A DNA stretch of 64,000 nt, taken from positions 7,626 through 71,625 of the forward strand of contig MWDG01000003.1 in the NCBI GenBank assembly GCA_002070455.1, read 5' to 3'. The stretch comes from Deltaproteobacteria bacterium ADurb.Bin151. GTDB lineage: Bacteria > Desulfobacterota > Syntrophia > Syntrophales > Smithellaceae. The first letter of the stretch is position 1. Each line of letters opens with the position of its first letter. The notes under the pieces are model-generated. The model searched no databases. It was not told the DNA's origin and saw only the letters and a list, made by a program, of their open reading frames with translations. The position numbers and the translations under genes are program-made. This document shows, in pieces, positions 28,731 through 45,375 of this stretch.

Positions 28731-31700
28731 GTGATAAAAGATAACGAAAAAGTTGGTGCAGTAATGGTGGTTGGCGCTGGAATCGCCGGTATCCAGGCCT
28801 CCCTTGATTTAGCCAATTCCGGAATGAAGGTTTATCTCGTTGAAAACGGGATCAGCATTGGCGGTGTTATGGCCCAGCTGGACAAGACCTTCCCCACAAA
28901 TGATTGTTCCGCCTGTATTCTCTCTCCCAAGCTTGTCGAAGTTGGCCGTCACCCGAACGTCAACATTATGACAAGACGGACCGTCGAGACCGTGGAAGGA
29001 GAGCCCGGAAAGTTCAAGGTTAAACTCACGTCCGCACCCCGCTATGTCAATCTGGACAAATGCACCGGTTGCGGAGATTGCGCAAATGTCTGCCCGATTA
29101 CGGTCAAGGCCGCATTCAATGGCAATTTAAGCGAAAGAAAAGCAATATACCGGCACTTCCCCCAGGCGATTCCCAGCGGTTTTGCCATAGACAAACTGGG
29201 GACATCCCCCTGTAAAGCCAATTGTCCCACCCATATCAGTGTTCAGGGTTATGTGGCACTCATTGCCGATGGAAAATTCAAGGAAGCCCTCAAACTCATC
29301 AAACAGGACAACCCTTTCCCCATCGTCTGCGGACGCGTCTGCAACCATCCGTGCGAGACGGCCTGTATGCGCGGCAAGGTGGATGAACCGATCGACATCA
29401 TGCATCTGAAGCGTTTTGTCGCGGACCTGGACCTCAACAGCGATACCCGATACCTGCCCGAAAAGAAGGAAAGCAATGGCAAGAAAGTTGCCGTAGTCGG
29501 CGCGGGTCCGTCAGGACTTACGTGTGCGTACTACCTGGCGATTGAAGGTTATGAGGTGGTGGTTTACGAAGCCCTGCCGGTGGCGGGCGGCTGGATGGCT
29601 GTCGGCATTCCCGAATACCGCCTGCCCAAGAATGTTCTCAATGCGGAAATTAAAGTCATTCAGGATCTGGGCGTAAAGATTTATCTCAATACCAGAATTG
29701 GCAGAGACATTCCCTTCGACAAACTGAAAAGCGATTTTGACGCGGTCTTTATCGGCTGCGGCACCATGAAGAGCAGCAAGCTCAATATCCCCGGCGAAGA
29801 CATGCAGGGTGTGATCCATGGCGTGGATTACCTGATGCAGATCAACCTGGGCAAGCAGCTTTTCCTGGGAGACCGGGTTGCCGTTATCGGCGGTGGAAAC
29901 GTGGCCATGGACGCCGTTCGCACAGCCGTCAGAACCGGATCGAAAAATGTGTTTATCCTCTATCGACGGACCCGTGCTGAAATGCCCGCTTCACCCGAAG
30001 AAATCGAAGAAGCGATTGAAGAAGGAATTGAGATGAAATTCCTCGTTGCCCCGAAACGGGTTGTGGGCAAGGATGGAAAAGTCACCGGCATCGAATGTGC
30101 GAGGATGGAACTGGGCGAGCCGGATGCAAGCGGACGACGCCGTCCCATCGAGATCAAGGGGTCCGAATTCATCGTTGAATGCGATGCCATTGTTCCCGCC
30201 ATCGGTCAGGAGGCGGACCTCTCCTTTATTACGAAGGAAAGCGGAGTCTCCATTAACAAATGGAACAATGTCGATTACGACAAGGTCACTTTTGCAACCA
30301 ATGTTCCCGGTGTTTTCTCCGGCGGCGACGTAGTCACCGGACCGCAAACCGTTGTCAAAGCCGTCTTTTCCGGTAAGGAAGCGGCCAAATCCATCGACCG
30401 CTATCTGCAGGGCGTGGATATGAAGGCAGGCCGTGAGAAAGACTGGACCAAAGACCTCGCGGACAAAGCCGATGTTTCCGATGTTCCCAAGGTCCCCCGT
30501 GAAAAATACCCGAACATGAAACCGGAAGAGCGACGCACCAGTTTCCAGGAAGTCGGAATCGGCTTTTCGGAAGCCCAGGCGATCGCGGAAGCTAATCGCT
30601 GCCTGGCCTGCGGCATTTGTTCGGAATGTTATCAGTGCGTTGACGCCTGTATTGCCAAAGCCATTGATCATGAGATGAAAGCGGAAGAAGAGACGATTGA
30701 AGTCGGTGCCGTGATCGCCGCGCCCGGTTTTGAAATCTTTGATGCCAGCAAACGTGGAGAGTATGGTTATGGCATTTATAAAAATGTGGTGACGGCGCTG
30801 CAGTTTGAGCGGATCCTTTCCGCTTCCGGCCCCTATTTTGGACACGTCCAGAGAATTTCTGACGGTAAGGAACCGAAGAAGATCGCCTTTATTCAATGCG
30901 TAGGTTCGCGCGATGTTTCCTGCGGCAACAGCTGGTGTTCTTCGGTCTGCTGCATGTACGCGACAAAAGAGGCCATTATCGGAAAAGAACACGCAAAGGG
31001 GCTCGAACCGACAATTTTCTTCATGGATATCCGTGCCCATGGCAAGGATTTTGACCGTTTCGTCAATCGTGCCAAGGACGAATACGGTATTCGCTACATC
31101 CGCTCCATGCCGTCCTCTATCAAAGAACTGCAGCAGAACAACAATCTGCTTATCAAGTACACCAACCCGGACGGCAGTTTCACCGAAGAAGAATTCGACA
31201 TGGTGGTGCTGTCTGTGGGTCTGATGCCGCCCAAGGAAGCCAAAAAACTTTCCGCCAGCCTCGGCATCGAGCTCGAAGAGCACGGTTTCTGCAAAACGCA
31301 GCTTGAAAATCCCGTCAAGACATCGCGTCCCGGCGTGTTTGTCTGCGGCGCCTTTGGTGGCCCGAAAGACATTCCGGAAACGGTCATGGAGGCTTCGGCT
31401 GCTGCGGCCTGTGCGGAAGGGATGCTGGCCGGTAAACGCGGCACGATGATTACACCCGTGGAAAATCCGGAAGAAAAGGATATGCGCGGTCAGAGCGTGC
31501 GCACCGGTGTTTTTGTATGTCACTGCGGCATCAATATTGGCGGTGTTGTCAATGTCCCCGAAGTCCGCGACTTTGCGGCAACCCTGCCCACCGTTGTTTA
31601 TACGGCAGACAATCTCTTCACCTGTTCGCAGGATACCGCGGTGAAAATGGGGGAAGTCATCAAGGAACAAAACCTGACCCGCGTGGTCGTTGCTTCCTGT

Positions 31701-33164
31701 TCGCCCCGGACGCACGAGGGGCTTTTCCAGGAAAACTGCGAAAAGGCCGGCCTGAACCGCTATCTGTTTGAGATGGCCAATATCCGCGATCAGGATTCCT
31801 GGGTACACATGCATGAGCCGGAAAAAGCCACCCAAAAAGCCAAAGACCTGTTGAGGATGGCTGTGGCCAAGGCCCAGTATCTCAAACCGCTAAAACCCGG
31901 GCAGCTTTCTGTCAACCACCAGGCGTTGATTATCGGCGGTGGTCTGGCCGGTATAACCGCTGCCCTGTCTCTGGCGGATCAGGGTTTTGCGTCCTTCGTC
32001 ATTGAAAAAGAAGACCGTTTGGGCGGCAATTACAATCATCTGTATAAGACCCTTGAAGGTCTGGATACACGCGCTCACCTGAAAGGGCTGCTGGAAAAGG
32101 TTTACAACAATCCTTTAATTACCGTCGTAACGGGCGCCCATATTGAAAAGATTGAAGGATTTATCGGGAATTACAAAACCACTGTAAAAAACAAAGACGG
32201 CGAGAAAGTCTTCGAGCACGGGGTGGTGCTTGTAGCCATCGGTGCATACGAAAATGAACCGAAAGAATACCTCTACAAACAGAACGCAAAGGTCAAAACA
32301 CAAAGAGAGCTGGAAAAACTGATCTACGAAAAGGATCCGAAACTGGCCGCTGTGAAAAACGTAGTCATGATTCAGTGTGTGGGCAGCCGCAATGAAGAAA
32401 GACCTTACTGCAGCCGCTACTGTTGCGGTGAGGCGATCAAAAACGCTCTGGAACTTAAAGCGGCTGATCCGTCGCGTGATATTACAATTCTCTATCGTGA
32501 TATCCGTACTTTTGCTTTCAAGGAGGACTATTACAAGAAAGCCCGTGAAGCGAACATCAAATTCATTTCTTATGAAGAAAACCGCAAACCGGAAGTGGTT
32601 GCATCAGGTGATAAGGTGGAAGTAAAAGTCCATGATCCGATTTTGAATGAAACGGTGAATTTGTCCGCGGATGCAGTGGTGTTGAGTGTCGGCGTGGTGC
32701 CGAATCCGGAAAACGTTGCGATCGGCAATATGCTGAAAGTGCCCACCAATCAGGACGGTTTTTTCCTGGAAGCGCACGTCAAATTGCGTCCGGTTGATTT
32801 CGCAACCGACGGTGTATTTATGTGCGGTATGTCTCATTCGCCCAAGTATAGTGACGAGACAGTTACACAAGCCAACGCCGCGGTATCGCGCGCCTGTCTG
32901 ATTTTGACGCAGGATTACATCCAGGCGGAAGGTAAGACCGCCTATGTGAACAAGGAAAGATGTTCCGCATGCGGTTTGTGCGAAATCAACTGTCCTTACA
33001 GCGCTATCAGCGTGAATGTGGCAGAAGGCTGTGCCGAAGTGAACGCGGTTCTTTGTAAAGGCTGCGGCGTCTGCACCGCGTCCTGTCGTATGAATGCCGT
33101 GGATCTCAACGGCTTCAACAACGAAGAAGTGCTGGCACAGATATACAACATCAACGAAGGCTAA
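28731..33164 (+). CDS. hdrL: HdrL-type giant flavo-iron-sulfur protein: HdrA-like module split by a GltD-like NAD(P)H/FAD domain, followed by a second complete HdrA-like module
   Basis: GTG start. N-terminus VVGAGIAGIQASLDLA..DKTFPTNDCSACIL is HdrA-like. Residues ~150-560 are like glutamate synthase small subunit (CP.HI.VQGY...CGRVC.HPCE.AC.R, VAVVGAGPSGLTCAYYL). A second FVCHCG.NI...ASCSPR module follows, with C-terminal 2x[4Fe-4S] Cys clusters. Confidence 0.75.
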   Translation: MIKDNEKVGAVMVVGAGIAGIQASLDLANSGMKVYLVENGISIGGVMAQLDKTFPTNDCSACILSPKLVEVGRHPNVNIMTRRTVETVEGEPGKFKVKLTSAPRYVNLDKCTGCGDCANVCPITVKAAFNGNLSERKAIYRHFPQAIPSGFAIDKLGTSPCKANCPTHISVQGYVALIADGKFKEALKLIKQDNPFPIVCGRVCNHPCETACMRGKVDEPIDIMHLKRFVADLDLNSDTRYLPEKKESNGKKVAVVGAGPSGLTCAYYLAIEGYEVVVYEALPVAGGWMAVGIPEYRLPKNVLNAEIKVIQDLGVKIYLNTRIGRDIPFDKLKSDFDAVFIGCGTMKSSKLNIPGEDMQGVIHGVDYLMQINLGKQLFLGDRVAVIGGGNVAMDAVRTAVRTGSKNVFILYRRTRAEMPASPEEIEEAIEEGIEMKFLVAPKRVVGKDGKVTGIECARMELGEPDASGRRRPIEIKGSEFIVECDAIVPAIGQEADLSFITKESGVSINKWNNVDYDKVTFATNVPGVFSGGDVVTGPQTVVKAVFSGKEAAKSIDRYLQGVDMKAGREKDWTKDLADKADVSDVPKVPREKYPNMKPEERRTSFQEVGIGFSEAQAIAEANRCLACGICSECYQCVDACIAKAIDHEMKAEEETIEVGAVIAAPGFEIFDASKRGEYGYGIYKNVVTALQFERILSASGPYFGHVQRISDGKEPKKIAFIQCVGSRDVSCGNSWCSSVCCMYATKEAIIGKEHAKGLEPTIFFMDIRAHGKDFDRFVNRAKDEYGIRYIRSMPSSIKELQQNNNLLIKYTNPDGSFTEEEFDMVVLSVGLMPPKEAKKLSASLGIELEEHGFCKTQLENPVKTSRPGVFVCGAFGGPKDIPETVMEASAAAACAEGMLAGKRGTMITPVENPEEKDMRGQSVRTGVFVCHCGINIGGVVNVPEVRDFAATLPTVVYTADNLFTCSQDTAVKMGEVIKEQNLTRVVVASCSPRTHEGLFQENCEKAGLNRYLFEMANIRDQDSWVHMHEPEKATQKAKDLLRMAVAKAQYLKPLKPGQLSVNHQALIIGGGLAGITAALSLADQGFASFVIEKEDRLGGNYNHLYKTLEGLDTRAHLKGLLEKVYNNPLITVVTGAHIEKIEGFIGNYKTTVKNKDGEKVFEHGVVLVAIGAYENEPKEYLYKQNAKVKTQRELEKLIYEKDPKLAAVKNVVMIQCVGSRNEERPYCSRYCCGEAIKNALELKAADPSRDITILYRDIRTFAFKEDYYKKAREANIKFISYEENRKPEVVASGDKVEVKVHDPILNETVNLSADAVVLSVGVVPNPENVAIGNMLKVPTNQDGFFLEAHVKLRPVDFATDGVFMCGMSHSPKYSDETVTQANAAVSRACLILTQDYIQAEGKTAYVNKERCSACGLCEINCPYSAISVNVAEGCAEVNAVLCKGCGVCTASCRMNAVDLNGFNNEEVLAQIYNINEG

Positions 33165-33200
33165 CGGCTCAAAACCGTACAGCCTCTGGAAGGAGAATAT

Positions 33201-33641
33201 ATGGCTGAAAACGTAGCAAACAAAGAATGGGAACCGAAATTCGTTGCCATTGTCTGCAACTGGTGCACCTATGCGGGTGCCGACCTGGCGGGGATCAGCA
33301 GAATTCAGTATCCGACAAATGTTCGGATCATCCGCGTTCCCTGTACGGGAAGGATAAATCCTTTTTATATCGTGAAAGCCCTGCAGACAGGTGCCGACGG
33401 CGTTCTGGTTTCGGGTTGACACCCGGGTGAATGCCACTATACCTCAGGAAATCTGGTGGCACGGCGCAAGTTTGCGACGTTAAAAAGTTTCCTGAATTAC
33501 ATCGGTGTGGAAGGTGACAGAACCATATTTACCTGGGTTTCTGCATCCGAAGGTGACCGGTGGGCACAGGTCATCAAAGGCGCTACGGAAAAAATAAGGG
33601 CGCTGGGGCCGGCCAATAAGCTGATTAAGAAGATTGCGTAG
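33201..33641 (+). CDS. flxD: MvhD/FlxD-like [2Fe-2S] protein with in-frame UGA at 33417-33419 (candidate selenocysteine)
   Basis: ORFs 33201..33419 and 33456..33641 are in the same frame, separated only by one TGA. The read-through product ...[24 protein letters not shown]... aligns residue-for-residue with the paralogue at 41976 (...[24 protein letters not shown]...). Confidence 0.75.
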
Positions 33642-33683
33642 TCTGATAAAAGATAATCATTAATAAACGGGGAAATCATCACT

Positions 33684-34694
33684 GTGGAAAACATCGAAAC
33701 AAAATTGCGGGAAGAAGCAAACAGGCTGCTCTTGGAAAAGAAGGTCGACGTGATCATCGGCTTTGAAAAAGGTACGCTTCCATTAACGGCGACACCGTGC
33801 TTTATCACGAAGCCGGAAGAAGCCGACAAGCTTGTCTGGAATAATCTCTGCACGCAGAACCTGGCTAAATTTGTGCACGATCTGATCACGGCACATAAGA
33901 ATTCGCAAAAGCGGGTGAAGCCGGAGGATCGAAAGAAAAAAGTCATTGGCGTCGTCGCCCGTGGCTGTACAACTCGTTCGCTCATCATCCACCTGCAGGA
34001 GAGGCAGTACGGAAGAGATGAAGTCTTTATTATCGGCGTTCCCTGCGATGGTTATGTGGACGGAAAAGGCCTGAAAGTGAAGATAAACGGGGCGGACATT
34101 ATCGAGGGATCGATGGACGGCGCCCAGATTAAAATGAAGACTTCCGACGGCGACAAAACCGTTGATTTCAAAGATGTGCTGGCAGACTGCTGCAAGACCT
34201 GCCGTTTCAACAATCCCATTATTTCCGACGTTATGATCGGATCGCCCGCGCCGCCAATGAATCCCGATGCGGAATACGACGATGTCAAGGAATTTGAAGC
34301 GAAAACGATTGAAGAGCGTTGGGCTTACTTTGCGAAAGAAATGGAAAAGTGCATCCGTTGCTACGCGTGCCGCCAGGCCTGCCCTTCCTGCTACTGTCCG
34401 ACCTGCTTTGTCGAACAGAGCCAGCCTCAATGGGTGGGCATCGGAGAGGATGCCACGGATACCCAGGTGTTTCAGTTCATGCGCCTGTATCACATGGTTG
34501 GTCGCTGCGTGGACTGCGGTTCCTGCGTTTCCGTCTGTCCGATGGGCGTGGATTTGAGGAAGTTCCTGAAGAAACTCGACAAGGATTGCCTCGAATTCTT
34601 CGGCAACCGGGCCGGCTCCAGCATGGAAGATATGCCGCCACTGGGCAAATTTGACGAACATCACGATAAACAAGATTTTATCTACAACCCATAA
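33684..34694 (+). CDS. flxC: FlxC-like iron-sulfur protein (2x[4Fe-4S] ferredoxin-type domain)
   Basis: GTG start. CIRCYACRQACPSCYCPTC and CVDCGSCVSVCP cluster motifs. Paralogue of 42407..43273. Confidence 0.6.
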   Translation: MENIETKLREEANRLLLEKKVDVIIGFEKGTLPLTATPCFITKPEEADKLVWNNLCTQNLAKFVHDLITAHKNSQKRVKPEDRKKKVIGVVARGCTTRSLIIHLQERQYGRDEVFIIGVPCDGYVDGKGLKVKINGADIIEGSMDGAQIKMKTSDGDKTVDFKDVLADCCKTCRFNNPIISDVMIGSPAPPMNPDAEYDDVKEFEAKTIEERWAYFAKEMEKCIRCYACRQACPSCYCPTCFVEQSQPQWVGIGEDATDTQVFQFMRLYHMVGRCVDCGSCVSVCPMGVDLRKFLKKLDKDCLEFFGNRAGSSMEDMPPLGKFDEHHDKQDFIYNP

Positions 34695-34718
34695 TTCGTT
34701 CGAGAAGATGGAGTTTAC

Positions 34719-35246
34719 ATGGAAACTTTTCTGGAAGCAGTGAATAAAAAAATACATGGTGTTCCATTGCAGGCCTGTTACCACTGCAGGAAGTGCTCGG
34801 CAGGCTGCCCCGCCGCGTCCTACATGGAATTTAACCCCAATAAAGTTATAAAAATGATCCAGAACGGGCAGAAAGACAAGGTGCTTTCGAGCTCCACCAT
34901 CTGGCTGTGCCTGTCTTGCGAAACCTGCATCACCCGTTGTCCCAATCAGGTCGATATCGCGCGGATGATGGACGTCCTTCGGCAGATGGCCATTGAAGAA
35001 GGTGTTGCCGCCAGGGAAGCAAATGTCCTGAAGTTCCACGAGGCATTCCTCTCCAGCATCAAGTTCGGTGGTCGCGTCCATGAAATGTTGATGACGGTTC
35101 ACTACAAGCTTAAGTCCGGTGACTTCTTCTCGGATGTGGACATTGCACCGTCAATGTTCCTTAAGGGAAAGCTGGCGCTTCTGCCGCCGCGGACCAAAGA
35201 TATGAAGTCGGTGAAGAATATTTTTGAGAAGACGAAAACAAAATGA
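34719..35246 (+). CDS. hdrC: Heterodisulfide reductase subunit C-like
   Basis: CYHCRKCSAGCP and CLSCETCITRCP motifs, with size (175 aa) and context typical of HdrC. Confidence 0.8.
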   Translation: METFLEAVNKKIHGVPLQACYHCRKCSAGCPAASYMEFNPNKVIKMIQNGQKDKVLSSSTIWLCLSCETCITRCPNQVDIARMMDVLRQMAIEEGVAAREANVLKFHEAFLSSIKFGGRVHEMLMTVHYKLKSGDFFSDVDIAPSMFLKGKLALLPPRTKDMKSVKNIFEKTKTK

Positions 35247-35314
35247 TGATGGAATATCGCGCGTCGCGCCGGAAGCCTGATGCGCTGTACCAAGCATAGA
35301 AGGAGGCTACTCTC

Positions 35315-36163
35315 TTGAAAGTTTCATATTATCCGGGTTGCTCGCTGCATGCGATGGGAAAAGAGTATGATCAGTCCATGAAGGCCGTGAGCCGCGCCCT
35401 CAACATCGAACTCAAAGAAGTTGACGATTGGTCCTGCTGCGGAGCATCCGCCGCGCATAATACCAATTTCGACCTGTCCATTGCCTTGCCGGCGCGGAAT
35501 CTCATCGCCGCCGAAAAAGATGCGATGGATGTGATGGTCCCCTGCGCCGCCTGTTTCAACCGCTTTAAAATGGCGGAGCATCATCTGAAGGCCGACAAAG
35601 ACCTGAAAGCCCGTATTGAAGGCGTCCTGGGCGCTAAATATCAGGGCGGCATCGCCATCCGCAATCCGATTGACGTGATATACAATGAAATCGGGATCGA
35701 TGCGCTGGCGGCGAAAGTCGTGAAGCCTATGGCGGGTCTGAAGCCGGTTTCCTATTACGGCTGTCTGCTTTTGCGTCCGCCCGAAGTATGCCAGTTTGAA
35801 AATTATGAAAATCCCTTCATGCTCGACAAAATGATGGGAGCCATCGGCGCCGATGTGAAAAACTGGTCATACAAGACCGATTGCTGCGGTGGTTCGCTGT
35901 CGGTCAGCAAGACGGCCATTGTGGTGGAGATGTGCGACAAGCTGATGGGTGGAGCCCGTGAAGCCGGTGCCAACTGTGTGGTGACGGCCTGTCCGATGTG
36001 CATGGCCAACCTGGAAATGCGTCCGAGCCCGAACATGAAAATGCCGGTCTTTTATTTTACGGAATTGCTTTCGTTGGCCCTGGATCTTCCCGGTTCGAAA
36101 GATACCTTCAAGTCGCATCTGACGGATGTGCAGCCGTTGTTGAGTCAGTTGCGATTGGTTTAA
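35315..36163 (+). CDS. hdrB: Heterodisulfide reductase subunit B-like (two CCG domains)
   Basis: TTG start follows GAAGGAGG. YYPGCSL, WSCCGAS and TDCCGGS CCG-domain motifs. Confidence 0.8.
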   Translation: MKVSYYPGCSLHAMGKEYDQSMKAVSRALNIELKEVDDWSCCGASAAHNTNFDLSIALPARNLIAAEKDAMDVMVPCAACFNRFKMAEHHLKADKDLKARIEGVLGAKYQGGIAIRNPIDVIYNEIGIDALAAKVVKPMAGLKPVSYYGCLLLRPPEVCQFENYENPFMLDKMMGAIGADVKNWSYKTDCCGGSLSVSKTAIVVEMCDKLMGGAREAGANCVVTACPMCMANLEMRPSPNMKMPVFYFTELLSLALDLPGSKDTFKSHLTDVQPLLSQLRLV

Positions 36164-36232
36164 ATGAAGCTGATAAAACCCCGACGCTGTGAAAAATGTA
36201 ACGTTGGATAAAATAATAATTTAGGGACAATT

Positions 36233-37269: not shown

Positions 37270-38109
37270 ATGCAAAACCCGTATATTCCTTATCCCGTAA
37301 TCGTGGATAAAATCATTACTGAAGTCGATACCAAAGACATCAAGACCTTCCGGTTCAAGTTTGTCAATCCGGAAGACGAGCAGAAGTATGCATATATCCC
37401 CGGCCAGTTTGGTGAACTTTCCATCTACGGCAAGGGAGAATCACCCATTGGAATTGCTTCCTCTCCAACGCAGAAAGGTTATGTTGAATTTACTGTGCAG
37501 AAAGCCGGTGTGGTTACCTCGGCGCTCCATGAAATGGAAGAAGGCATGATGATGGGTATTCGCGGGCCGCTGGGCAACTCCTGGCCGCTCGAATTTCTCG
37601 AAGGGAAAAACATTGTGATTGTCGGCGGCGGTTTCGCGTTTACAACGCTCCGGTCGCTGATTAATTACATGATATACGGTGACAACCGCAAGCGTTTCGG
37701 CAACATCACCGTGATTTACGGTGCGAGAAATCCCGGTTTACTGCTTTATAAAGATGAGCTGATCGAATGGCAGAAACGGGATGATTTGAATATAAATGTT
37801 ACTGTTGATAAAGGCGACGCGACCTGGAAGGGCAGGGAAGGATTCGTTCCTGCCGTCTGCAAGGAAGTCGCTCCCAGCAAGGAAAACGCGGTTGCCGTGA
37901 TCTGCGGTCCCCCTGTGATGATCCGTTTTACCCTGCCGGTGTTCTTTGAACTCGGCTTTTCGAAGGAAAACATCATTACATCACTGGAAATGCGGATGAA
38001 ATGCGGCATCGGAAAGTGCGGCCGCTGCAATGTCGGCAGCAAATATGTCTGCAAGGACGGCCCGGTCTTTACGCTGGCGGAGCTGGATAAACTGACGCCG
38101 GAATACTAA
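37270..38109 (+). CDS. flxA: FlxA-like FAD/NAD(P)H-binding oxidoreductase with C-terminal [2Fe-2S] (AsrB/HydG-like)
   Basis: PGQF...GESP (FAD-binding), VGGG.AFTTLRS (NAD-binding), CGIGKCGRCNVG cluster motif. Confidence 0.65.
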   Translation: MQNPYIPYPVIVDKIITEVDTKDIKTFRFKFVNPEDEQKYAYIPGQFGELSIYGKGESPIGIASSPTQKGYVEFTVQKAGVVTSALHEMEEGMMMGIRGPLGNSWPLEFLEGKNIVIVGGGFAFTTLRSLINYMIYGDNRKRFGNITVIYGARNPGLLLYKDELIEWQKRDDLNINVTVDKGDATWKGREGFVPAVCKEVAPSKENAVAVICGPPVMIRFTLPVFFELGFSKENIITSLEMRMKCGIGKCGRCNVGSKYVCKDGPVFTLAELDKLTPEY

Positions 38110-38141
38110 CCAGTCCCGGATTCTTCAAGAATTTTTCTTAA

Positions 38142-38169
38142 AAGGGAGCCTTTGGGTTCCCTTTTTTTT
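38142..38169 (+). terminator. Rho-independent terminator closing the first Flx/Hdr operon
   Basis: AAGGGAGCC-tttg-GGTTCCCTT followed by a T8 run. Confidence 0.8.
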
Positions 38170-38287
38170 GCAGCACCCTATCGGACTGCGTGGGCGTGGG
38201 GGTCGGTAAAGTGAAAAAAATTTGAAGTTTGTTTTTTTCTATGCTAGCAGAAACATAAATTGACGCATCAATCATGGGAGATATTTA

Positions 38288-39463
38288 ATGTCACAGACAG
38301 TTACACCCTATCTGGAAATGTCCCAGGCAATTATCGAGGCCGGCGGGGAAGCGCTGAAGAAATGTTACCAGTGCGGCACCTGCGCAGGCACCTGCCCATG
38401 GACACCGATCACTGATTTTAATATCCGTAAACTCGTGCGTTACGGCCAACTGGGACTGGACGGGATTGAAGAGTTCATGTGGGGTTGCTCCACCTGTAAG
38501 TTCTGCGTGGAACGCTGTCCCCGAGGGGTTGAAATCATCGATATTGTGACAGCCATCCGCAATGTATACAGCGGCGGCGGCCTGCTGCCGCAGAGTCTGC
38601 GCGCTTTTGTCGGGTCGCTTTCGGCAAGGGGCAACCCCTGGTCCGGCGATCAGGCAAAAAGAAACGACTGGGCCAGAGATAAATATCCTCTTTACACGTC
38701 CGATAAAGAATATTTGTATTGGACCTGTTGTACGGTTTGTTACGATCCGCGCAACATCCGTCTGGCCAAGGCGACTGCCGAATTGCTGAATCTTTCGGGA
38801 TTAAGCTGGGGGATTCCTTCCATTGATGTCAATTGCTGTGGTGAGAGTCTGAAAAAGGTTGGCGATCTGGAGCTTTTTGAAAGGCTGAAAAACAAAAACC
38901 TGGACTATTTCAAATCCCAGGGGGTTACTAAAATCATCACCGGTTCCCCGCACTGCCTGGCGTCTTTCAATAAAGATTACGGTGTAGATTACGAGGTCGT
39001 GCACATCAGCGAACTGATGGCCGAATGGATAAAAAACGGTAAAATTGTTCCCAAAAAAGATTTTGGCGGCCTGAAGGTCACCTATCATGATCCCTGTTAT
39101 CTGGGCCGGCACAGTAAAGTGTTTGATGCGCCACGGGAGATCCTGAAATCCCTGCCCGGTGTCGAATTTATCGAGATGGAACGAAACAGTGAAGAGAGCA
39201 TGTGCTGCGGTGGCGGTGGCGGCGGATTATGGATGGAAAAAGCCAAGGGAGAGCGTCTGAGTGATCTCAGAATTGAAGAAGCCATGGGTACGGGCGCAAC
39301 CGTTCTGGCGACGGCATGTCCCTATTGCATTACCATGTTTGAAGACAGCAGCCGAACGCTGAATGTGGATGACCAGATTAAGATCAAAGATCTGACGGAG
39401 CTGCTTCTGGAGAGTTTGGAAATCAGCATTGACGAGCCGGTTGTGGATACGTGTGCCCTTTAG
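38288..39463 (+). CDS. HdrD/GlcF-like Fe-S oxidoreductase (N-terminal 2x[4Fe-4S] fused to two CCG domains)
   Basis: CYQCGTCAGTCP and CSTCKFCVERCP, then NCCGESL and MCCGGGGG CCG-domain motifs. Confidence 0.75.
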   Translation: MSQTVTPYLEMSQAIIEAGGEALKKCYQCGTCAGTCPWTPITDFNIRKLVRYGQLGLDGIEEFMWGCSTCKFCVERCPRGVEIIDIVTAIRNVYSGGGLLPQSLRAFVGSLSARGNPWSGDQAKRNDWARDKYPLYTSDKEYLYWTCCTVCYDPRNIRLAKATAELLNLSGLSWGIPSIDVNCCGESLKKVGDLELFERLKNKNLDYFKSQGVTKIITGSPHCLASFNKDYGVDYEVVHISELMAEWIKNGKIVPKKDFGGLKVTYHDPCYLGRHSKVFDAPREILKSLPGVEFIEMERNSEESMCCGGGGGGLWMEKAKGERLSDLRIEEAMGTGATVLATACPYCITMFEDSSRTLNVDDQIKIKDLTELLLESLEISIDEPVVDTCAL

Positions 39464-39586
39464 ATGACGTTGCCGCCAACGGTATATATGTTGGCAATTG
39501 GGAGAAAATGATCTCTATAATTCAATTATTTAACTGGATACCGGTTTTCGCCGGCATGACGATAGAGAAACAACTCAGGAGATAGT

Positions 39587-41536
39587 ATGAGCAGAATTGG
39601 TGTATTTGTTTGCCACTGCGGTTTAAATATAGCCAAGACGGTTCGGGTGAGTGAACTGGCCCAGTTTGCGGCCACACTGCCGGACGTGGTTGTCGCAAAA
39701 GACTACAAGTTCATGTGTTCCACGCCCGGTCAGGAAATGATTGCCAATGACATTAAAGAACACAGACTGGATCGCGTGATTGTAACTGCCTGTTCGCCCC
39801 TGATGCATGAACAGACCTTCCGCAAAGTTTTAGCAGCGTCCGGACTGAATCAGTATCTTCTGACGATTGTCAACATCCGTGAGCAGGTGTCCTGGGTTAC
39901 GCATGATATTGAAGAAGGAACATCCAAGGCCAAGGCGCTTCTCAACGGTGCGGTTGCCCGGGCCAGGCTTCTGGCTCCCCTGACGTCGCGGGTGATCGAC
40001 GTCAATCCCGATGTGATGGTAGTAGGCGGCGGTATTGCAGGTATTCAGGCCTCGCTGGAACTGGCCAACACCGGCAAGAAGGTTTATCTTGTTGAAAAAA
40101 ACTCCACCATCGGCGGCCACATGGCTCAGTTTGATAAAACCTTTCCCACGCTGGACTGCTCCGCCTGTATTCTCACCCCCAAGATGGATGCCGTCCTGCA
40201 GCATAAAAATATTACACTTATGACATCCTGTGAAGTGACGGAAGTCAAGGGATTTGTCGGCAACTTCGATATTACAATAAAACAGAAAGCGCGCTACGTG
40301 GATCACGACAAGTGCAACGCCTGTCTGGCCTGTACGGAAAAATGCCCCGGCAAGGGGACATCAGAATGGGATGAAGGTCTGGTGAAGAGAAAAGCCATCT
40401 ACATTCCGTTTCCGCAGGCTGTGCCGCAAAAGCCGGTCATCGATCGGGAATCCTGTACATTCTTTAAGAAAGGCAAATGCCGCCTGTGTGAAAAGGTCTG
40501 CGAGCAGAAAGCCATCGACTTTGAACAGCAGGATACCTTCACCACTGTGAAGGTCGGGGCTGTCATTGTGGCGACCGGTTATGATCTCATGGATACCAGG
40601 GAACTCATTCAATACGGTTACGGTAAATATCCCGGTGTTTACAACGCGCTGGAAGTGGAAAGGCTCTTCAATTCCGCCGGACCCACAGGCGGCAAGGTGA
40701 CGCTCCGGGACGGCAAGGAACCGCATGCCATTGCCATTTTCCACTGTATTGGAAGCCGAGATAAAAACAACTATGAGCACTGCAGCCGGGTTTGCTGCAT
40801 GTATTCTCTCAAATTTGCACATTTGTTCAAGGAAAAGACTTCTGCAGATGTGTATCAGTTTTACATTGACATGCGCGCCGCCGGCAAAGGCTATGAAGAA
40901 TTTTACAACCGTATTATTGAAGAGGATGTGAAATTCATCCGCGGCAAGGGTGCGCGTGTGGCCGCTAGCGTTGATGAACCGGGACGTCTGGTTGTCGAGG
41001 CGGAGGATACCATCACAGGCAAATTCATCAAACTGCCCGTGGATATGGTTGTCCTTTCCCCGGCCATGATACCGAGGTCGGACGCGAGGGATATTGCCAG
41101 GCTCTTTAATCTGAGCACGGATAAGCAGGGATTTTTCATGGAGAGGCATCCGAAACTGGCCCCCCTTTCCACAATGTCCGAAGGTATCTTTATTGCCGGA
41201 GTCTGTCAGAGCCCCAAGGACATTCCGGACACCGTGGCACAGGCCAACGGCGCGGCGGCGGAAGCGCTGACCATTGTCGTCAAAGATAAAATGGAACTGG
41301 AGGCAACCACGGCGATGGTGAATCCGGCATCGTGCTGTGCCTGCCAGAACTGCGTTCGTGTCTGTCCGTATGGCGCTCCGTTCTTCAATGAGCAGAAAGG
41401 TGTGTCCGAAATTAACGAAGCCCTGTGCAAGGGATGTGGTCTTTGTGCGTCCGTCTGCCCGACGGGGGCGATTATTGCACGGCATTTTACAAATGATCAG
41501 GTGTTGGCAGAAATGGAAGGCCTCATGGAGTTCTAG
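39587..41536 (+). CDS. hdrA: Heterodisulfide reductase subunit A-like flavoprotein
   Basis: FVCHCG.NI, TACSP, VVGGGIAGIQASLELA, DKTFPTLDCSACIL, CIGSRD, CSRVCCMY, and C-terminal CCACQNCVRVCP / CKGCGLCASVCP. Confidence 0.85.
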   Translation: MSRIGVFVCHCGLNIAKTVRVSELAQFAATLPDVVVAKDYKFMCSTPGQEMIANDIKEHRLDRVIVTACSPLMHEQTFRKVLAASGLNQYLLTIVNIREQVSWVTHDIEEGTSKAKALLNGAVARARLLAPLTSRVIDVNPDVMVVGGGIAGIQASLELANTGKKVYLVEKNSTIGGHMAQFDKTFPTLDCSACILTPKMDAVLQHKNITLMTSCEVTEVKGFVGNFDITIKQKARYVDHDKCNACLACTEKCPGKGTSEWDEGLVKRKAIYIPFPQAVPQKPVIDRESCTFFKKGKCRLCEKVCEQKAIDFEQQDTFTTVKVGAVIVATGYDLMDTRELIQYGYGKYPGVYNALEVERLFNSAGPTGGKVTLRDGKEPHAIAIFHCIGSRDKNNYEHCSRVCCMYSLKFAHLFKEKTSADVYQFYIDMRAAGKGYEEFYNRIIEEDVKFIRGKGARVAASVDEPGRLVVEAEDTITGKFIKLPVDMVVLSPAMIPRSDARDIARLFNLSTDKQGFFMERHPKLAPLSTMSEGIFIAGVCQSPKDIPDTVAQANGAAAEALTIVVKDKMELEATTAMVNPASCCACQNCVRVCPYGAPFFNEQKGVSEINEALCKGCGLCASVCPTGAIIARHFTNDQVLAEMEGLMEF

Positions 41537-41627
41537 GTATGACGTTATAAAAATCCCATATGCTGCGTTGCGCTCCGTTCGCATTGCTGCGACCTACGAA
41601 AAAGTAGGCCTCGCGCTGCGATACTCA

Positions 41628-41832
41628 CGCGCCTTGCCTCTGGAATTTTTCTTAACGTCATTAAAGACTGTGCAAAAGAAAATAAGTCTGTCAGGTGCCG
41701 CGCATCTGGAACACTTTTGAACGACATAAGGGAAGTAGGGTTGTAGAAAAAAATATGACGTCATAGATATCTTATGGAAGGAAAAAAGATCTATGAGGCA
41801 CGCCTTGCCTCTGGAATTTTTCTTAACGTCAT
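41628..41832 (+). repeat. Pair of 34-nt direct repeats (41628-41661 and 41799-41832) inside the hdrA-flxD spacer
   Basis: C(G/A)CGCCTTGCCTCTGGAATTTTTCTTAACGTCAT occurs twice, 33/34 identical by eye, 171 nt apart. Confidence 0.85.
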
Positions 41833-41861
41833 CAATGATAGAGTATTTTGTATAAAAGCGT

Positions 41862-41945
41862 GTCATTTCGAGGAGCGAAGCGACGAGAAATCTTATGACC
41901 GGGCAACAGGAGTTCAATCGGATTTCTCCCGATGGTCGAAATGAC
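41862..41945 (+). repeat. 84-nt nested-palindrome element immediately upstream of the flxD SD
   Basis: Outer inverted repeat GTCATTTCGA (41862-41871) / TCGAAATGAC (41936-41945). Inner inverted repeat GAGAAATC (41885-41892) / GATTTCTC (41921-41928). The architecture matches the 130-nt element family at 49655, 56418 and 61971. Confidence 0.7.
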
Positions 41946-41975
41946 CGTAGAGTAGATGAGTGGAAAGGATAGTCT

Positions 41976-42392
41976 ATGTCATTTGAACCGAAAATCTTAG
42001 GCATTGCCTGCAACTGGTGCACCTATACGGGCGCGGACCTGGCGGGAACCACAAGACTGCAGTATCCGCAAAATACCAGGGTGGTGCGTGTGATGTGCTC
42101 CAGCCGGATCAACCCGTCCTTCATTTTCCGTGCCTTTCAGCTTGGCGCGGACGGCGTTTTAGTGGGCGGCTGCCATCCCGGCGACTGCCATTATAATACA
42201 GGTAACCTTTATGCCCGAAGGCGATTGGCCGTGACTAAAAAGATCCTGGAATTTTCCGGAATGGAACCGGGAAGGTTCCGTGTGGAATGGATTTCCGCTT
42301 CCGAAGGCAATAAGTTCGCCGAAGTTGTCAGGGAATTCACCGAACAGATTAGAAATCTCGGTCCGCAGACAAAGTTCAAGATTGAAAAATAA
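41976..42392 (+). CDS. flxD: MvhD/FlxD-like [2Fe-2S] protein (Cys version)
   Basis: ILGIACNWCTY.GADLAG...GADGVLVGGCHPGDCHY. Paralogue of 33201..33641. Confidence 0.8.
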   Translation: MSFEPKILGIACNWCTYTGADLAGTTRLQYPQNTRVVRVMCSSRINPSFIFRAFQLGADGVLVGGCHPGDCHYNTGNLYARRRLAVTKKILEFSGMEPGRFRVEWISASEGNKFAEVVREFTEQIRNLGPQTKFKIEK

Positions 42393-42406
42393 ATTCGGGA
42401 GAAGAT

Positions 42407-43273
42407 ATGGCAACAAGCTTTAAGCAAATTGAGGAAAACCTGAAAAACGAAGCCAGGAAACTTCTGGAAGAAGGTAAGGTGAGTCTGGTTCTGGCTTACG
42501 GCAGGGGTTACGATGAAGATCATCCCGTGCCCTTTGTAGCCAGAGTTGTGGCGGATGTGGAGAATATGGTTTTCAATGAATACTGTACGGCCAATATGGC
42601 ACGATACCTGGTTCGTTATCCGCGGGGCACAAAGATGGCGATTGCCGTTAAACCGGCTGACAGCCGTGCCGTAGTCCAACTTATTCAGGAAGACAAAATT
42701 AAGCGCGAAGATGTGATTCTCCTGGGGATCCCGGTGATCGGCATGAAAAATTCAAAAACCGGGGAAGTAATCGACAGCAAAACGACCTGCGGAATGTATA
42801 ATCCTGTTTTGTATGATGTGCTGCTGGGTGAAGAAATTCATGGTCAGACTGTTGTTTCGCCGTACGATGTCCTTGCCGAATACGAAACGATGGACAAAGA
42901 CGCGCGTTTTGCTTTCTGGAAGAAGGAATTTGATAAATGCATCCGCTGCTATGCCTGCCGTAAAGCCTGTCCGATGTGCTATTGCGATCCCTGCTTTATC
43001 GATCAGAATAAACCGAAGTGGGGTGATAAATCCCCGCAATCCCACGGCAACCTGATGTATCATCTGACACGGTTTCATCATCTGGCCGGCCGGTGCATCG
43101 ACTGCGGCGAATGTTCGCGGGCCTGTCCGGTGGATATTCCATTGTATTTATTCCACAAGAAGGTGGCCAAAGAGTGTGAGGAAATGTTTGGTCAGGCCGC
43201 CGGCAAGAGTATCCAGGACAAGCCGGTTCTGGTGAATTTCCGCGTGGATGATTCTGATAAAATTCTGGAATAA
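42407..43273 (+). CDS. flxC: FlxC-like iron-sulfur protein
   Basis: CIRCYACRKACPMCYCDPC and CIDCGECSRACP. Paralogue of 33684..34694. Confidence 0.6.
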   Translation: MATSFKQIEENLKNEARKLLEEGKVSLVLAYGRGYDEDHPVPFVARVVADVENMVFNEYCTANMARYLVRYPRGTKMAIAVKPADSRAVVQLIQEDKIKREDVILLGIPVIGMKNSKTGEVIDSKTTCGMYNPVLYDVLLGEEIHGQTVVSPYDVLAEYETMDKDARFAFWKKEFDKCIRCYACRKACPMCYCDPCFIDQNKPKWGDKSPQSHGNLMYHLTRFHHLAGRCIDCGECSRACPVDIPLYLFHKKVAKECEEMFGQAAGKSIQDKPVLVNFRVDDSDKILE

Positions 43274-43439
43274 TCGGTTAGACGTTTGGAGGATGTTCTG
43301 AACTAAAAATAGAATAGCTTGGCAAGTTGCATGGCATTAACCCAAGCCCGCAAACAAAGACTGCGGGATAAATTCGACTAAGTTTTTTGCTTTGCTTCCA
43401 GCTTGCAAAAAACAAGTCTCATTAATAAGGAGCTTTGTT

Positions 43440-44477
43440 GTGTTGAAGAAAACAGCAGTTCAAAAAATATCCGATCTGGCCGCGCAGCTGATGCAGAAGG
43501 GAACGCTGATCGCGCCTGTCCGGGAAGACGCGGGGTTTAATTTCCGTGAAATATCCGATGCCGGGCAGGTGGATTTGAATTTTTACAATACGCTGATGAG
43601 CCCAAAATCGGCCTTTTTCCCGCATATGGAAGATTTTGTCCGGTATCAGACCGGGAAGTCCGTTCTGGATGCCGTGCCTGTAGAAATCAGTATAAAACCG
43701 GCTTTCCTTTTTGGCGTGAGACCCTGCGATGTCAAGAGTTTCGAGATTATGGATATTCATTTCAGCGGCACCGGTGCAGTCGATCCCTACTGGCAGAAAA
43801 GAAGAGAAGCCACCACAATCTTCGGATATGCTTTCGACCTGAACACCCCGGCGGACGGGGCGGATTTCTATGCTACACTGGGAATCGGTGCGGCGGACCC
43901 TGAAGGCAGCGATGTTTTCATGATGAAAAAAGGCGATGAACTGCTGCTGAAAGCCGTCACGAAGAAAGGTGAAAAGCTCCTTGCCGAAATGAGCGGTCTT
44001 ACGGACGCGTCACCTGAAGATCAGAAATATTTTGATGAAACCGTTGCCACTGGCCGGTCTTTTAAAACACGTCTTACCTGTGTGGAGGCGAAGTCCATTG
44101 CTAAAAAGTTCGAGGATCTTTTCCACAAGACCCCGTTCTGGGAGCGGATTTCCGACGCCTGCTTAAGTTGCGGCATCTGCACTTTTGTCTGTCCCACCTG
44201 TTACTGCTTCGATATTTGTGATGAGACCCTTTTCGGCCAGGGAACACGCCGCCGTGTCTGGGACGCCTGTATGTTTACAGACTTCACCCTGGAAGCCAGC
44301 GGACACAACCCGCGCACAAAGGTTTATCAGCGCCTGCGCCAGAAAGTATGTCATAAATATTCATACCATGTCCGGAAGTACGGCGTGATTTCCTGTGTAG
44401 GATGCGGACGCTGCACGCGCGCCTGCCCGGTGAATATCGATATCTTCTCCATTGTGGATCAGGCCATGAAGGAATAG
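43440..44477 (+). CDS. flxB: FlxB-like iron-sulfur protein (AsrA-like)
   Basis: GTG at 43440 lies 7 nt after AAGGAG. GVRPCD. CLSCGICTFVCPTCYCFD and CVGCGRCTRACP. Confidence 0.6.
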   Translation: MLKKTAVQKISDLAAQLMQKGTLIAPVREDAGFNFREISDAGQVDLNFYNTLMSPKSAFFPHMEDFVRYQTGKSVLDAVPVEISIKPAFLFGVRPCDVKSFEIMDIHFSGTGAVDPYWQKRREATTIFGYAFDLNTPADGADFYATLGIGAADPEGSDVFMMKKGDELLLKAVTKKGEKLLAEMSGLTDASPEDQKYFDETVATGRSFKTRLTCVEAKSIAKKFEDLFHKTPFWERISDACLSCGICTFVCPTCYCFDICDETLFGQGTRRRVWDACMFTDFTLEASGHNPRTKVYQRLRQKVCHKYSYHVRKYGVISCVGCGRCTRACPVNIDIFSIVDQAMKE

Positions 44478-44514
44478 TTATAGAAAGATCACGAAATCGA
44501 GATTGAGGAAAAAT

Positions 44515-45375
44515 ATGAGCTCAGATAATCCATACATTCCCATGCCGGTTGAGATTATTAAAATCATCGACGAAGTGGATACTCACGACATCAAAACATT
44601 TCGCTTTACCTTCCTGAACAAAGCAGATGAGAAAAAATTTAAATATCTGCCCGGGCAGTTTGCGGAACTGTCCATTTACGGAAAAGGAGAATCTCCCATC
44701 GGCATCGCCTCCTCGCCGACCGAGCAGGGGTATGTCGAATTTACAGTGCAAAGAGCGGGTGCAATCGTTCCGGGGCTGGTGACGGCCGCCCTGCACGACA
44801 TGGATGAAGGCGCAAAGATCGGTCTGCGCGGGCCGTTGGGCAATTCCTGGCCGATTGAATTCCTCGAGAAAAAGAATATTGTTGTCGTTGGCGGCGGTTT
44901 TGCGTTTACAACGCTGCGCTCACTGATCAATTATATGCTCTACAAAGACAACCGGTCGCGCTTCGGCGACATTACCGTGATTTACGGTGCCAGGACTCCC
45001 GGTCTGCTTTTGTATAAGGATGAACTGGCCGCCTGGGAGAAGCGCGACGACATCAAAACCATTATCACCGTGGACAAAGGCGATGAGAACTGGAAGGGGA
45101 GGGAAGGGTTTGTCCCTGCGGTCTGTAAAGACGCGGCACCATCGCCAAAAAATACCGTGGCTGTGATCTGCGGACCGCCGGTGATGATTAAATTTACCCT
45201 GCCGGTATTTTTCGAGCTGGGTTTTTCCAGGGAAAACATTCTGACTTCCCTGGAAATGAGGATGAAGTGCGGTATCGGAAAATGCGGCCGCTGCAACGTT
45301 GGTTATAAATACGTGTGCTCGGACGGTCCGGTCTTTTCGCTGGCCGAATTGGAAGAACTGCCCCGCGACTTTTAA
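44515..45375 (+). CDS. flxA: FlxA-like FAD/NAD(P)H oxidoreductase with [2Fe-2S]
   Basis: ATG at 44515 follows GAGGAA. Long identical stretches with 37270..38109 (e.g. GKGESPIGIASSPT, GGGFAFTTLRSLINYM, WKGREGFVPAVCK, SLEMRMKCGIGKCGRCNVG). Confidence 0.65.
   Translation: MSSDNPYIPMPVEIIKIIDEVDTHDIKTFRFTFLNKADEKKFKYLPGQFAELSIYGKGESPIGIASSPTEQGYVEFTVQRAGAIVPGLVTAALHDMDEGAKIGLRGPLGNSWPIEFLEKKNIVVVGGGFAFTTLRSLINYMLYKDNRSRFGDITVIYGARTPGLLLYKDELAAWEKRDDIKTIITVDKGDENWKGREGFVPAVCKDAAPSPKNTVAVICGPPVMIKFTLPVFFELGFSRENILTSLEMRMKCGIGKCGRCNVGYKYVCSDGPVFSLAELEELPRDF

Follow-up and report, generated by a model that had tools for sequence, protein, structure and literature searches.

Gene content and family identity of the flx/hdr region

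We analysed a window of 64,000 nt from the Smithellaceae assembly GCA_002070455.1 (contig MWDG01000003.1). The region 28731–45375 of this window carries two adjacent gene modules with flx-type and hdr-type genes, and they probably encode two separate cytoplasmic complexes of the Flox/Hdr (flavin oxidoreductase-heterodisulfide reductase) type of a syntrophic Smithella. The two are different machines: module 1 is based on HdrL and HdrBC, and module 2 on HdrA and an HdrD-like protein. The FlxD subunit of module 1 is an overlooked selenoprotein, which public annotations split in two. The region consists of 13 co-directional genes on the + strand. Their order and content had been predicted before (the original prediction), and the coordinates from the list of open reading frames (ORFs) and the Pfam and NCBIfam architectures agreed with it for 13 of 13 genes.

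hdrL, 28731–33164, + strand: fusion protein of 1477 aa (Pfam; NCBIfam PRK12771, 585 bits with a cutoff of 516; blastp map against the HdrA of module 2)
flxD1, 33201–33641, + strand: MvhD/FlpD-type [2Fe-2S] subunit of 146 aa (PF02662, E 1e-50 when read through the TGA)
hairpin resembling a selenocysteine insertion sequence (SECIS), 33433–33460, + strand: GCCACUA-N14-UGGUGGC, beginning 13 nt past the UGA (fold)
flxC1, 33684–34694, + strand: FdhB/FrhB-related Fe-S protein with two CxxCxxCxxxC motifs and an N-terminal Cys set
hdrC, 34719–35246, + strand: two [4Fe-4S] motifs (Pfam, NCBIfam, motif scan)
hdrB, 35315–36163, + strand: two complete CX(n)CCX(n)CXXC (CCG) motifs (PF02754 twice)
flxB1, 36233–37255, + strand: Fe-S protein of the HydB/AsrA superfamily (Fer4_22)
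flxA1, 37270–38109, + strand: [2Fe-2S] flavoprotein binding flavin adenine dinucleotide (FAD) and NAD(P)H, HydG/PyrK/NfnA-like
terminator-like hairpin between the modules, 38140–38170, + strand: 11-bp stem and U8 tail (fold -17.2 kcal/mol, z -2.5)
hdrD-like gene, 38288–39463, + strand: soluble, fused HdrC+HdrB-type protein with two [4Fe-4S] motifs and two CCG domains
hdrA, 39587–41536, + strand: 649 aa, canonical architecture without selenocysteine (NCBIfam HdrA2, 802 bits)
spacer, 41537–41975, no strand: 439 nt between hdrA and flxD2, with small repeats
flxD2, 41976–42392, + strand: MvhD-type subunit with Cys (PF02662, E 2e-54)
flxC2, 42407–43273, + strand: shortened FlxC
flxB2, 43440–44477, + strand: Fer4_22 protein, start revised to a GTG with the ribosome-binding site AAGGAG
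flxA2, 44515–45375, + strand: FAD/NAD(P)H-binding [2Fe-2S] flavoprotein

Two gene starts of module 2 had to be moved, while the genes themselves stood. Judged by the ribosome-binding sites, the GTG at 43440 is the most likely start of flxB2 (not 43392), and the ATG at 44515 that of flxA2 (not 44503).

HdrL is assembled from HdrA parts. Its residues 11–155 aligned with residues 143–287 of the module 2 HdrA, and its residues 632–887 with residues 297–552 (blastp). This first part corresponds to the core of HdrA: the N-terminal and C-terminal domains are missing, and a GltD/NfnB-like insert divides it from residue 158 to ~620. The insert comprises a Fer4_20 domain and an NAD(P)H/FAD module (Pfam Fer4_20 and Pyr_redox_2 at 158–548). 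Residues 924–1476 are a complete second HdrA, and over the C-terminal half of HdrL the identity to the module 2 HdrA is 39%. HdrL contains no selenocysteine. The extra GltD-type site that had been proposed for HdrL was recovered, with PRK12771 above its cutoff. The two FlxA proteins have the same domains (FAD_binding_6, NAD_binding_1 and DHODB_Fe-S_bind). The thiol/disulfide parts differ between the modules as predicted, with HdrBC in module 1 and the fused HdrD-like protein in module 2.

Related loci were taken from a scan of species-representative genomes, of which the best 80 of 176 were used; all FlxA1-type loci were 88–100% identical. The 80 loci were mostly labelled Smithella, Smithellaceae, Syntrophaceae or Deltaproteobacteria (one was labelled Syntrophus and one Bacillota), and FlxA1 was found verbatim on many metagenome contigs. 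The host is a syntrophic Smithella, a member of the Syntrophales. An orthologous series of 14 consecutive ORFs (437_38:51, i.e. 437_38 to 437_51) is listed as "Hdr/Flox" for Ca. Smithella cisternae M82_1 in the readable part of Table S10 of PMC5606693.

All Smithellaceae loci of sufficient length had module 1 as a fixed unit of seven genes. The start of flxD1 lies 36 nt past hdrL, and this gap was 32–50 nt in 46 of 47 other loci. In one Smithellaceae metagenome-assembled genome (MAG; L083, ~6400–7450), flxC1 was frameshifted mid-gene, as a pseudogene or by an assembly error. Module 2 followed directly downstream of module 1 in 46 loci and was absent downstream in ~21 loci with at least 3 kb of flank. 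The Syntrophus MAG (L087, 2505–14223) had a complete module 1, followed by a pair of NfnA-like and NfnB-like genes instead of module 2.

The terminator that had been proposed after flxA1 was found at 38140–38170, by reading and folding the sequence; a generic terminator scan missed it. Because this terminator-like hairpin stands between them, the two modules are probably separate transcription units. The gap between the modules was 153–390 nt in most other species and larger in a few loci.

Judged by profile scores, the genes are of the Flox/Hdr type and not AsrABC. Profile searches for AsrABC had been suggested as a way to overturn the Flx identity, and it stands: AsrA reached 145.8 bits with a cutoff of 323, AsrB reached 192.4 bits with a cutoff of 288.6 (NCBIfam), and no AsrC-like ORF was present among the ORFs of the region. 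HydB and HydG scored 154–196 bits with cutoffs of 650–750 (NCBIfam), and no [NiFe] hydrogenase genes were found in the region, so the genes do not form a sulfhydrogenase (HydABDG).

To our knowledge, no structure of a Flx protein has been solved. Among solved structures, FlxA1 matched 9nez_C (E 2e-58) and FlxB1 matched 9nez_B, the sulfhydrogenase I beta subunit (E 1e-38). The entry 9nez is the sulfhydrogenase I of Pyrococcus, and the chains matched by FlxA and FlxB are its NADPH-oxidoreductase gamma and beta subunits. The profile search with FlxC led to FdhB of the methanogen Fdh-Hdr complex (7bkb_E, E 1e-37), with both halves aligned. FlxD2 was ~60% identical to the MvhD chains 8rvu_F and 5odc_D (E 1.5e-48 for the latter).

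All Flox subunit types were present: FlxA, the two distinct Fe-S proteins FlxB and FlxC beside flxA, and FlxD. The canonical set of HdrA, HdrB and HdrC was found in neither module, as HdrL replaces HdrA in module 1 and the HdrD-like protein replaces HdrBC in module 2. Both substitutions are variants that have already been described (PMC2702500; PMC5947623). HdrL is of the Desulfobacterium autotrophicum type, with HdrA and a GltD-like domain in one polypeptide and the mvhD-type gene directly next to it.

Selenocysteine in FlxD1

An in-frame TGA of flxD1 (33417–33419) sits exactly at the Cys position of FlxD2 (GADGVLVGGCHPGDCHY). This position also aligned with the Cys of GGCHxGDCHY in the solved MvhD chains. 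Among the fetched loci, the flxD1 codon was TGA in 48, TGT in 11 and TGC in one, and the protein alignment was continuous through the codon. The counterpart codon of flxD2 (TGC in the window) encoded Cys in 42 of 42 orthologues.

The SECIS-like hairpin behind the TGA differed between the two kinds of flxD1. Its RNAalifold consensus energy was -17.0 kcal/mol for 31 distinct TGA sequences and -5.2 kcal/mol for 12 Cys orthologues. At synonymous sites, the 5' arm was invariant and the 3' arm nearly so in the TGA set only, and the same sites varied freely in the 12 Cys orthologues. A bacterial SECIS is expected to leave just this signature, with hairpin arms fixed at synonymous positions in the TGA set alone. 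On this comparative evidence the selenocysteine of FlxD1 is real. The earlier assignment of a selenocysteine FlxD1 and a cysteine FlxD2 holds in full: the reading frame is kept, the hairpin is present and the codon is TGA in 48 loci and Cys in 12. Selenocysteine has been exchanged for cysteine in several lineages.

Gene callers split flxD1 into pieces of 72 and 61 aa, and the selenocysteine flxD of the Syntrophus MAG into 72 and 60 aa. In the readable rows of the table in PMC5606693, the M82_1 cluster has two adjacent "MvhD" ORFs, which are not recognised there as a selenoprotein. These two ORFs are one split selenoprotein gene. MvhD/VhuD is a recognised selenoprotein family (PMC9312934), and our literature search found no paper combining Smithella, selenocysteine and Hdr. 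No genes of the selenocysteine machinery (selA, selB, selC, selD) were found within the 64-kb window, where the sole tRNA was a tRNA-Met, and none appeared in a Pfam survey of 30 flanking ORFs.

Divergence of the two modules

The original prediction regarded the two modules as one duplicated and diverged unit. The scan of genomes gave essentially Smithellaceae, and distant synteny therefore came from contig look-ups of FlxB representatives. These supplied the outgroup loci for all subunits (L088, L090, L092 and L094); three of the contigs looked up were too short to show synteny. Identities were as follows.

FlxA: module 1 vs module 2, 78%; module 1 vs outgroups, 55–59%; FlxA vs outgroups overall, 55–62%
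FlxB: module 1 vs module 2, 37%; module 1 vs outgroups, 43–48%
FlxC: module 1 vs module 2, 36%; module 1 vs outgroups, 44%
FlxD: module 1 vs module 2, 57%; module 1 vs outgroups, up to 66% (L090 homologue)

The idea of a duplicated unit thus held for flxA only. FlxB, FlxC and FlxD of module 1 were closer to proteins of unrelated organisms than to their module 2 counterparts, which suggests an ancient divergence, comparable in depth to that of the entire family. FlxB was also searched against a library of 1.8 billion proteins, and the 150 best representatives of 50%-identity clusters were compared. FlxB1 and FlxB2 scored 223.6 bits with each other, and all 150 representatives scored at least 228.6 bits with FlxB1. 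With FlxB2 as the query, FlxB1 ranked 17th (224.8 bits, compared with 252.6 bits for representative P0138), and 15 cluster representatives outscored it. In neighbour-joining of 82 FlxB sequences, an exclusive clade of FlxB1 and FlxB2 was found in 0 of 100 bootstraps. FlxB2 was roughly equidistant (35–42%) from everything. By these comparisons, the modules are distinct, anciently diverged Flx lineages standing side by side.

FlxA behaved differently. The long identical stretches noted before are present, with runs of up to 20 residues at 78% overall identity. At the nucleotide level, the identical runs were at most 17 nt. The A1 orthologues in Smithellaceae and Syntrophus were 86–100% identical to FlxA1, above the 78% between FlxA1 and FlxA2. 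The pattern of identities indicates a later homogenisation or replacement between the modules that affected flxA alone. This event appears to be old, because third-codon-position (synonymous) identity was ~46% (95 of 205) and no stretch of identical nucleotides exceeded 17. The same two values rule out a recent gene conversion of the flxA copies.

FlxC2 lacks ~45 residues and the N-terminal Cys residues (C94, C121, C170 and C173 of FlxC1) that are kept in FlxC1 and in the outgroups. From this alignment, FlxC2 probably binds one Fe-S cluster fewer than FlxC1.

The gene order had been described as reversed. It is no peculiarity, as the order hdrA-like, mvhD, flxC, flxB, flxA recurred in the unrelated loci L088, L090 and L094 and is a common arrangement. 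In L090 (6549–10885; GCA_046758365.1), the genes encode an HdrA-like protein (1022 aa), MvhD, FlxC, a Prismane/hybrid-cluster protein, FlxB and FlxA. This single example hints that the position between flxC and flxB is an exchangeable slot, filled by hdrC-hdrB in Smithella module 1 and by the Prismane gene in L090.

The spacer between hdrA and flxD2 does contain repeats, as noted before (439 nt; the earlier figure was 440 nt), and they are small and mobile-looking. A palindromic element of ~123 nt (41539–41663) has terminal inverted repeats of 9 bp (ATGACGTTA/TAACGTCAT). A 32-nt sequence is repeated perfectly and in direct orientation at 41630 and 41801, and another long hairpin spans 41862–41947. 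The 20-nt core of the 32-nt repeat was found only at the hdrA–flxD2 spacer of the closest strains, in single copy in L064 and L066. A dispersal of the 32-nt repeat was therefore rejected. An Rfam scan of the whole window gave an RNase P RNA and a tRNA only, with no match in the flx/hdr region or the spacer. As a conserved part of the system, the spacer did not stand: the gap was 10–430 nt in other Smithellaceae, and the 439 nt are a lineage-specific insertion of small repeats. The gap of 10–24 nt in nine species implies that hdrD-hdrA-flxDCBA was ancestrally one tight unit. The gap between flxC2 and flxB2 (43274–43439, 166 nt) is a second lineage-specific insertion in module 2; it measured 3–16 nt in most Smithellaceae.

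Methanococci have selenium-regulated pairs of selenocysteine and cysteine isoenzymes, Vhu/Vhc and Fru/Frc. A selenium-dependent switch of this kind had been suggested for the two modules. Module 2 was adjacent in 24 of 31 loci with a selenocysteine FlxD1 and in 7 of 11–12 loci with a cysteine FlxD1 (Fisher p 0.27–0.44). All four combinations of selenocysteine or cysteine with or without module 2 occurred; module 2 was scored by adjacency and could lie elsewhere in a genome. Six species had both modules although their FlxD1 is a cysteine form (L026, L035, L037, L040, L052 and L079), and at least seven had a selenocysteine FlxD1 and no adjacent module 2. In a neighbour-joining tree of module 1 proteins, the selenocysteine or cysteine state and the presence of module 2 were both scattered. 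The scatter points to several switches between selenocysteine and cysteine, and to several losses or relocations of module 2. The comparison does not support the suggested switch, as the two modules are not isofunctional, FlxD1 and FlxD2 alike have Cys in six species that keep both modules, and the state of FlxD1 shows no association with module 2. These data remove the comparative argument for a selenocysteine/cysteine backup pair, and selenium-responsive regulation may still occur.

Proposed electron path, alternatives and known systems

Flox/Hdr complexes are regarded as one of the main ways in which syntrophs that degrade fatty acids and alkanes but lack Rnf produce or use up reduced ferredoxin. 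We know of no Flox/Hdr complex that has been characterised biochemically in a syntroph. The cofactor motifs found here fit the following path, which is predicted, as are its direction and its substrates. FlxA, with FAD and a [2Fe-2S] cluster, would exchange hydride with NAD(P)H. Electrons would pass from FlxA to FlxB (two [4Fe-4S] clusters), to FlxC as an FdhB-like adaptor, to FlxD (MvhD, [2Fe-2S]) and to an HdrA-type flavin. The homology of FlxC to FdhB offers a clue to the docking of the Flx module on MvhD and HdrA. At the HdrA-type flavin the electrons would then be bifurcated, with ferredoxin as one acceptor and a disulfide, reduced at the CCG clusters of HdrB or HdrD, as the other. A syntroph may run this reaction backwards, as confurcation.

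Other readings of the region were weighed. The TGA could be a genuine stop, so that flxD1 would be a pseudogene or a pair of short ORFs; alternatively, the genes could belong to AsrABC or a sulfhydrogenase and not to Flox/Hdr. The annotated fragments of 72 and 61 aa and some public annotations, which name FlxB "anaerobic sulfite reductase subunit A" or "sulfhydrogenase subunit beta", would agree with this. We give it almost no credence, as frame and sequence are kept across the TGA in 48 loci, 12 loci have a Cys codon, the synonymous constraint is specific to a SECIS, the NCBIfam Asr and Hyd scores are far under their cutoffs and the region has neither AsrC nor a [NiFe] hydrogenase gene. It is very improbable that both modules form one supercomplex or work in series (e.g. 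module 2 feeding module 1) and are not independent enzymes. Their adjacency in 46 loci and the nearly interchangeable FlxA subunits (78% identity) would suit such an arrangement. Each module, however, has full input, bifurcating and disulfide parts, the terminator-like hairpin and a spacer of 153–390 nt (larger in a few loci) separate them, and module 2 is not downstream in ~21 loci, with NfnAB-like genes in its place in the Syntrophus MAG. Hardly more probable is a selenium-regulated isoenzyme pair like Vhu/Vhc and Fru/Frc, in which module 1 would serve with selenium and module 2 under limitation. It would account for the selenocysteine of FlxD1 beside a FlxD2 with Cys in 42 of 42 orthologues and for the weak, non-significant trend in adjacency (24 of 31 vs 7 of 11–12 loci), and the same has been speculated for the selenocysteine and cysteine Hdr and MvhD paralogues of D. 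autotrophicum (PMC2702500). It conflicts with the different subunits (HdrL and HdrBC vs HdrA and the HdrD-like protein, and a FlxC2 without one Cys cluster), with FlxB, FlxC and FlxD copies that are 36–57% identical and not mutual closest relatives, and with selenocysteine in only one of the seven module 1 proteins. The six species with both modules and a cysteine FlxD1, the seven or more with a selenocysteine FlxD1 and no module 2 downstream, and the Fisher p of 0.27–0.44 also speak against the pair.

A simple tandem duplication within the Syntrophales, by which one module arose from the other and FlxB, FlxC and FlxD then evolved fast, is unlikely, though less so than the readings above. The shared D-C-B-A order, the adjacency of the modules and a FlxA1–FlxA2 identity (78%) above that to any outgroup (55–62%) would follow from it, and FlxB2 is equidistant (35–42%) from all, as a long branch would be. 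More than 150 clusters at 50% identity are nearer to FlxB1 than FlxB2 is, FlxB2 as a query prefers P0138 (252.6 bits) to FlxB1 (224.8 bits), no bootstrap of 100 joined FlxB1 and FlxB2, FlxD1 is 66% identical to the L090 protein and 57% to FlxD2, FlxC1 is 44% identical to outgroups and 36% to FlxC2, and the Hdr partners are unlike; all of this argues against a duplication. We give a similarly small chance to the view that module 1 is a distinct HdrL-centred machine, conserved across the Syntrophales. Such a machine would have two pyridine-nucleotide sites, with entry at FlxA and at the NfnB/GltD-like insert of HdrL, and two covalently linked HdrA-type flavin units that mimic an HdrA dimer. It could couple NADH/NADPH transhydrogenation to the reduction of ferredoxin and a disulfide, and the flxC–flxB position would be an exchangeable slot for the terminal reductase.

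Two separate Flox/Hdr-type complexes thus remain the probable reading, and several points weigh against it. The extra NAD(P)H site of HdrL and its two HdrA-type flavins are left unexplained by the simple scheme, and the HdrD-like protein has the full Cys motif only in its C-terminal CCG domain. A single hairpin carries the case for separate transcription. Neighbour-joining and identities are crude as phylogenetics, and long-branch effects in module 2 may have shaped the result. The original prediction had called bifurcation by Flx-Hdr established; the literature describes it for Desulfovibrio as "proposed" (PMC5947623) and calls Flox-Hdr an "uncharacterized syntroph-associated redox complex" (PMC7382037). 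The Flox/Hdr of Smithella is a known kind of system that is biochemically uncharacterised.

What is new is modest. It comprises the two evolutionarily distinct modules, the unannotated selenocysteine FlxD with its selenocysteine/cysteine turnover, the homogenisation of flxA, and FlxC as an FdhB homologue. The Flox/Hdr kind of system was already known, and the Smithella cluster itself had already been listed. Our results refine the annotation and can guide enzyme purification, and they leave the general picture unchanged.

Outside the flx/hdr region, the window is ordinary chromosomal DNA, with his genes, dnaG, rpoD, RNase P RNA and the phosphoenolpyruvate carboxykinase gene. Upstream of module 1, at 22460–26494, lie a dCache/PAS histidine kinase and a sigma-54-dependent response regulator. 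The sigma-54 regulator was upstream in 11 of 47 loci only, and a sigma-54 activator was also upstream in the Syntrophus locus. The sigma-54 motif TGGCAC-N5-TTGCW had no match near hdrL, hdrD or flxD2, and its two matches elsewhere are at chance level. An upstream GTPase was kept in 35 of 47 loci and has no obvious link to the modules. An aldehyde:ferredoxin oxidoreductase gene (46597–48780) lies 1.2 kb downstream of module 2; together with an Fe-alcohol dehydrogenase gene at 1523–2722, it recalls the ethanol link of the Desulfovibrio flx-hdr genes. As a conserved functional partner, the aldehyde:ferredoxin oxidoreductase was rejected, as only 10 of 27 assessable loci had it on the downstream side of module 2. 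Three tandem copies of a 169-nt unit, 96–100% identical, occur at 61374–61927. G+C-rich palindromic pieces of this unit are inverted at 56595–56760, ~4.6–5.2 kb upstream, and the repeats bracket major facilitator superfamily (MFS), methyltransferase and MatE genes.

The closest known system is the M82_1 cluster of PMC5606693. It is the same 14-ORF cluster, the readable rows match the gene kinds found here, and the Smithella relatives are 83–100% identical. These rows list an HdrL-sized "4Fe-4S ferredoxin", two MvhD, hdrC, hdrB, Fe-S proteins, FlxA-type proteins and an HdrD-type Fe-S oxidoreductase. That study proposes the Hdr/Flox cluster as the source of reduced ferredoxin, or substitute for Rnf, in a syntroph without Rnf. 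Unlike in our analysis, it is treated there as one "Hdr/Flox" cluster in which the modules are not distinguished, and HdrL appears under the names "4Fe-4S ferredoxin" and gltD.

The FlxABCD-HdrABC of Desulfovibrio vulgaris Hildenborough (Ramos et al. 2015, as described in PMC5947623) likewise has the four Flx subunit types with HdrA-type and CCG-type subunits, as far as a comparison by description goes. By that description, the cluster is named flxABCD-hdrABC, and the orders here are hdrL-flxD-flxC-hdrC-hdrB-flxB-flxA and hdrD-hdrA-flxDCBA. Unlike in D. vulgaris as described there, HdrL stands for HdrA in module 1, an HdrD-like protein stands for HdrBC in module 2, and one FlxD is a selenoprotein. 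DsrC, the acceptor discussed for sulfate reducers (PMC5947623), may not apply here because the host is a syntroph.

Syntrophobacter fumaroxidans offers a parallel to module 2. Its Hdr/Flox cluster (Sfum_1969–1977) likewise has HdrD in the place of HdrBC, beside hdrA and the Flox genes (PMC5947623). The M82_1 orthologues of FlxA1 and FlxA2 were 61–62% identical to Sfum_1970 and 57–61% identical to Dalk_5060. Unlike the Smithella cluster, that of S. fumaroxidans contains hdrA twice and does not stand next to an HdrL-based module (PMC5947623). Its HdrL is encoded in the separate cluster Sfum_0819–0824 with HdrABC, MvhD and one Fe-S protein, for which no FlxA or FlxB is described (PMC5947623). In D. 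autotrophicum HRM2, HdrL (HdrA with a glutamate-synthase-like NAD(P)H domain) is followed by mvhD, several MvhD proteins are selenoproteins, and "FdhB"-type genes occur at four hdr loci (PMC2702500). The same paper raises the replacement of selenocysteine by cysteine paralogues under selenium limitation. Unlike at the D. autotrophicum HdrL loci, the Smithella HdrL has no selenocysteine and lies inside a full Flx set with HdrBC.

The methanogen complexes of Fdh or Mvh with HdrABC and MvhD (7bkb, 8rvu, 5odc) resemble the Smithella modules in the FdhB-like FlxC, the MvhD-type FlxD and the HdrA parts. They differ in the input, which in Smithella is the NAD(P)H flavoprotein pair FlxAB (like the sulfhydrogenase beta and gamma subunits) and not a hydrogenase or formate dehydrogenase, and in the disulfide, which is not CoM-S-S-CoB (coenzymes M and B). 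With the Vhu/Vhc and Fru/Frc pairs of Methanococcus, Smithella shares a selenocysteine MvhD (VhuD-type) and a cysteine MvhD in one genome. Unlike the Methanococcus pairs, the Smithella modules differ in their subunits and are anciently diverged, and their pairing is not tied to the selenocysteine state.

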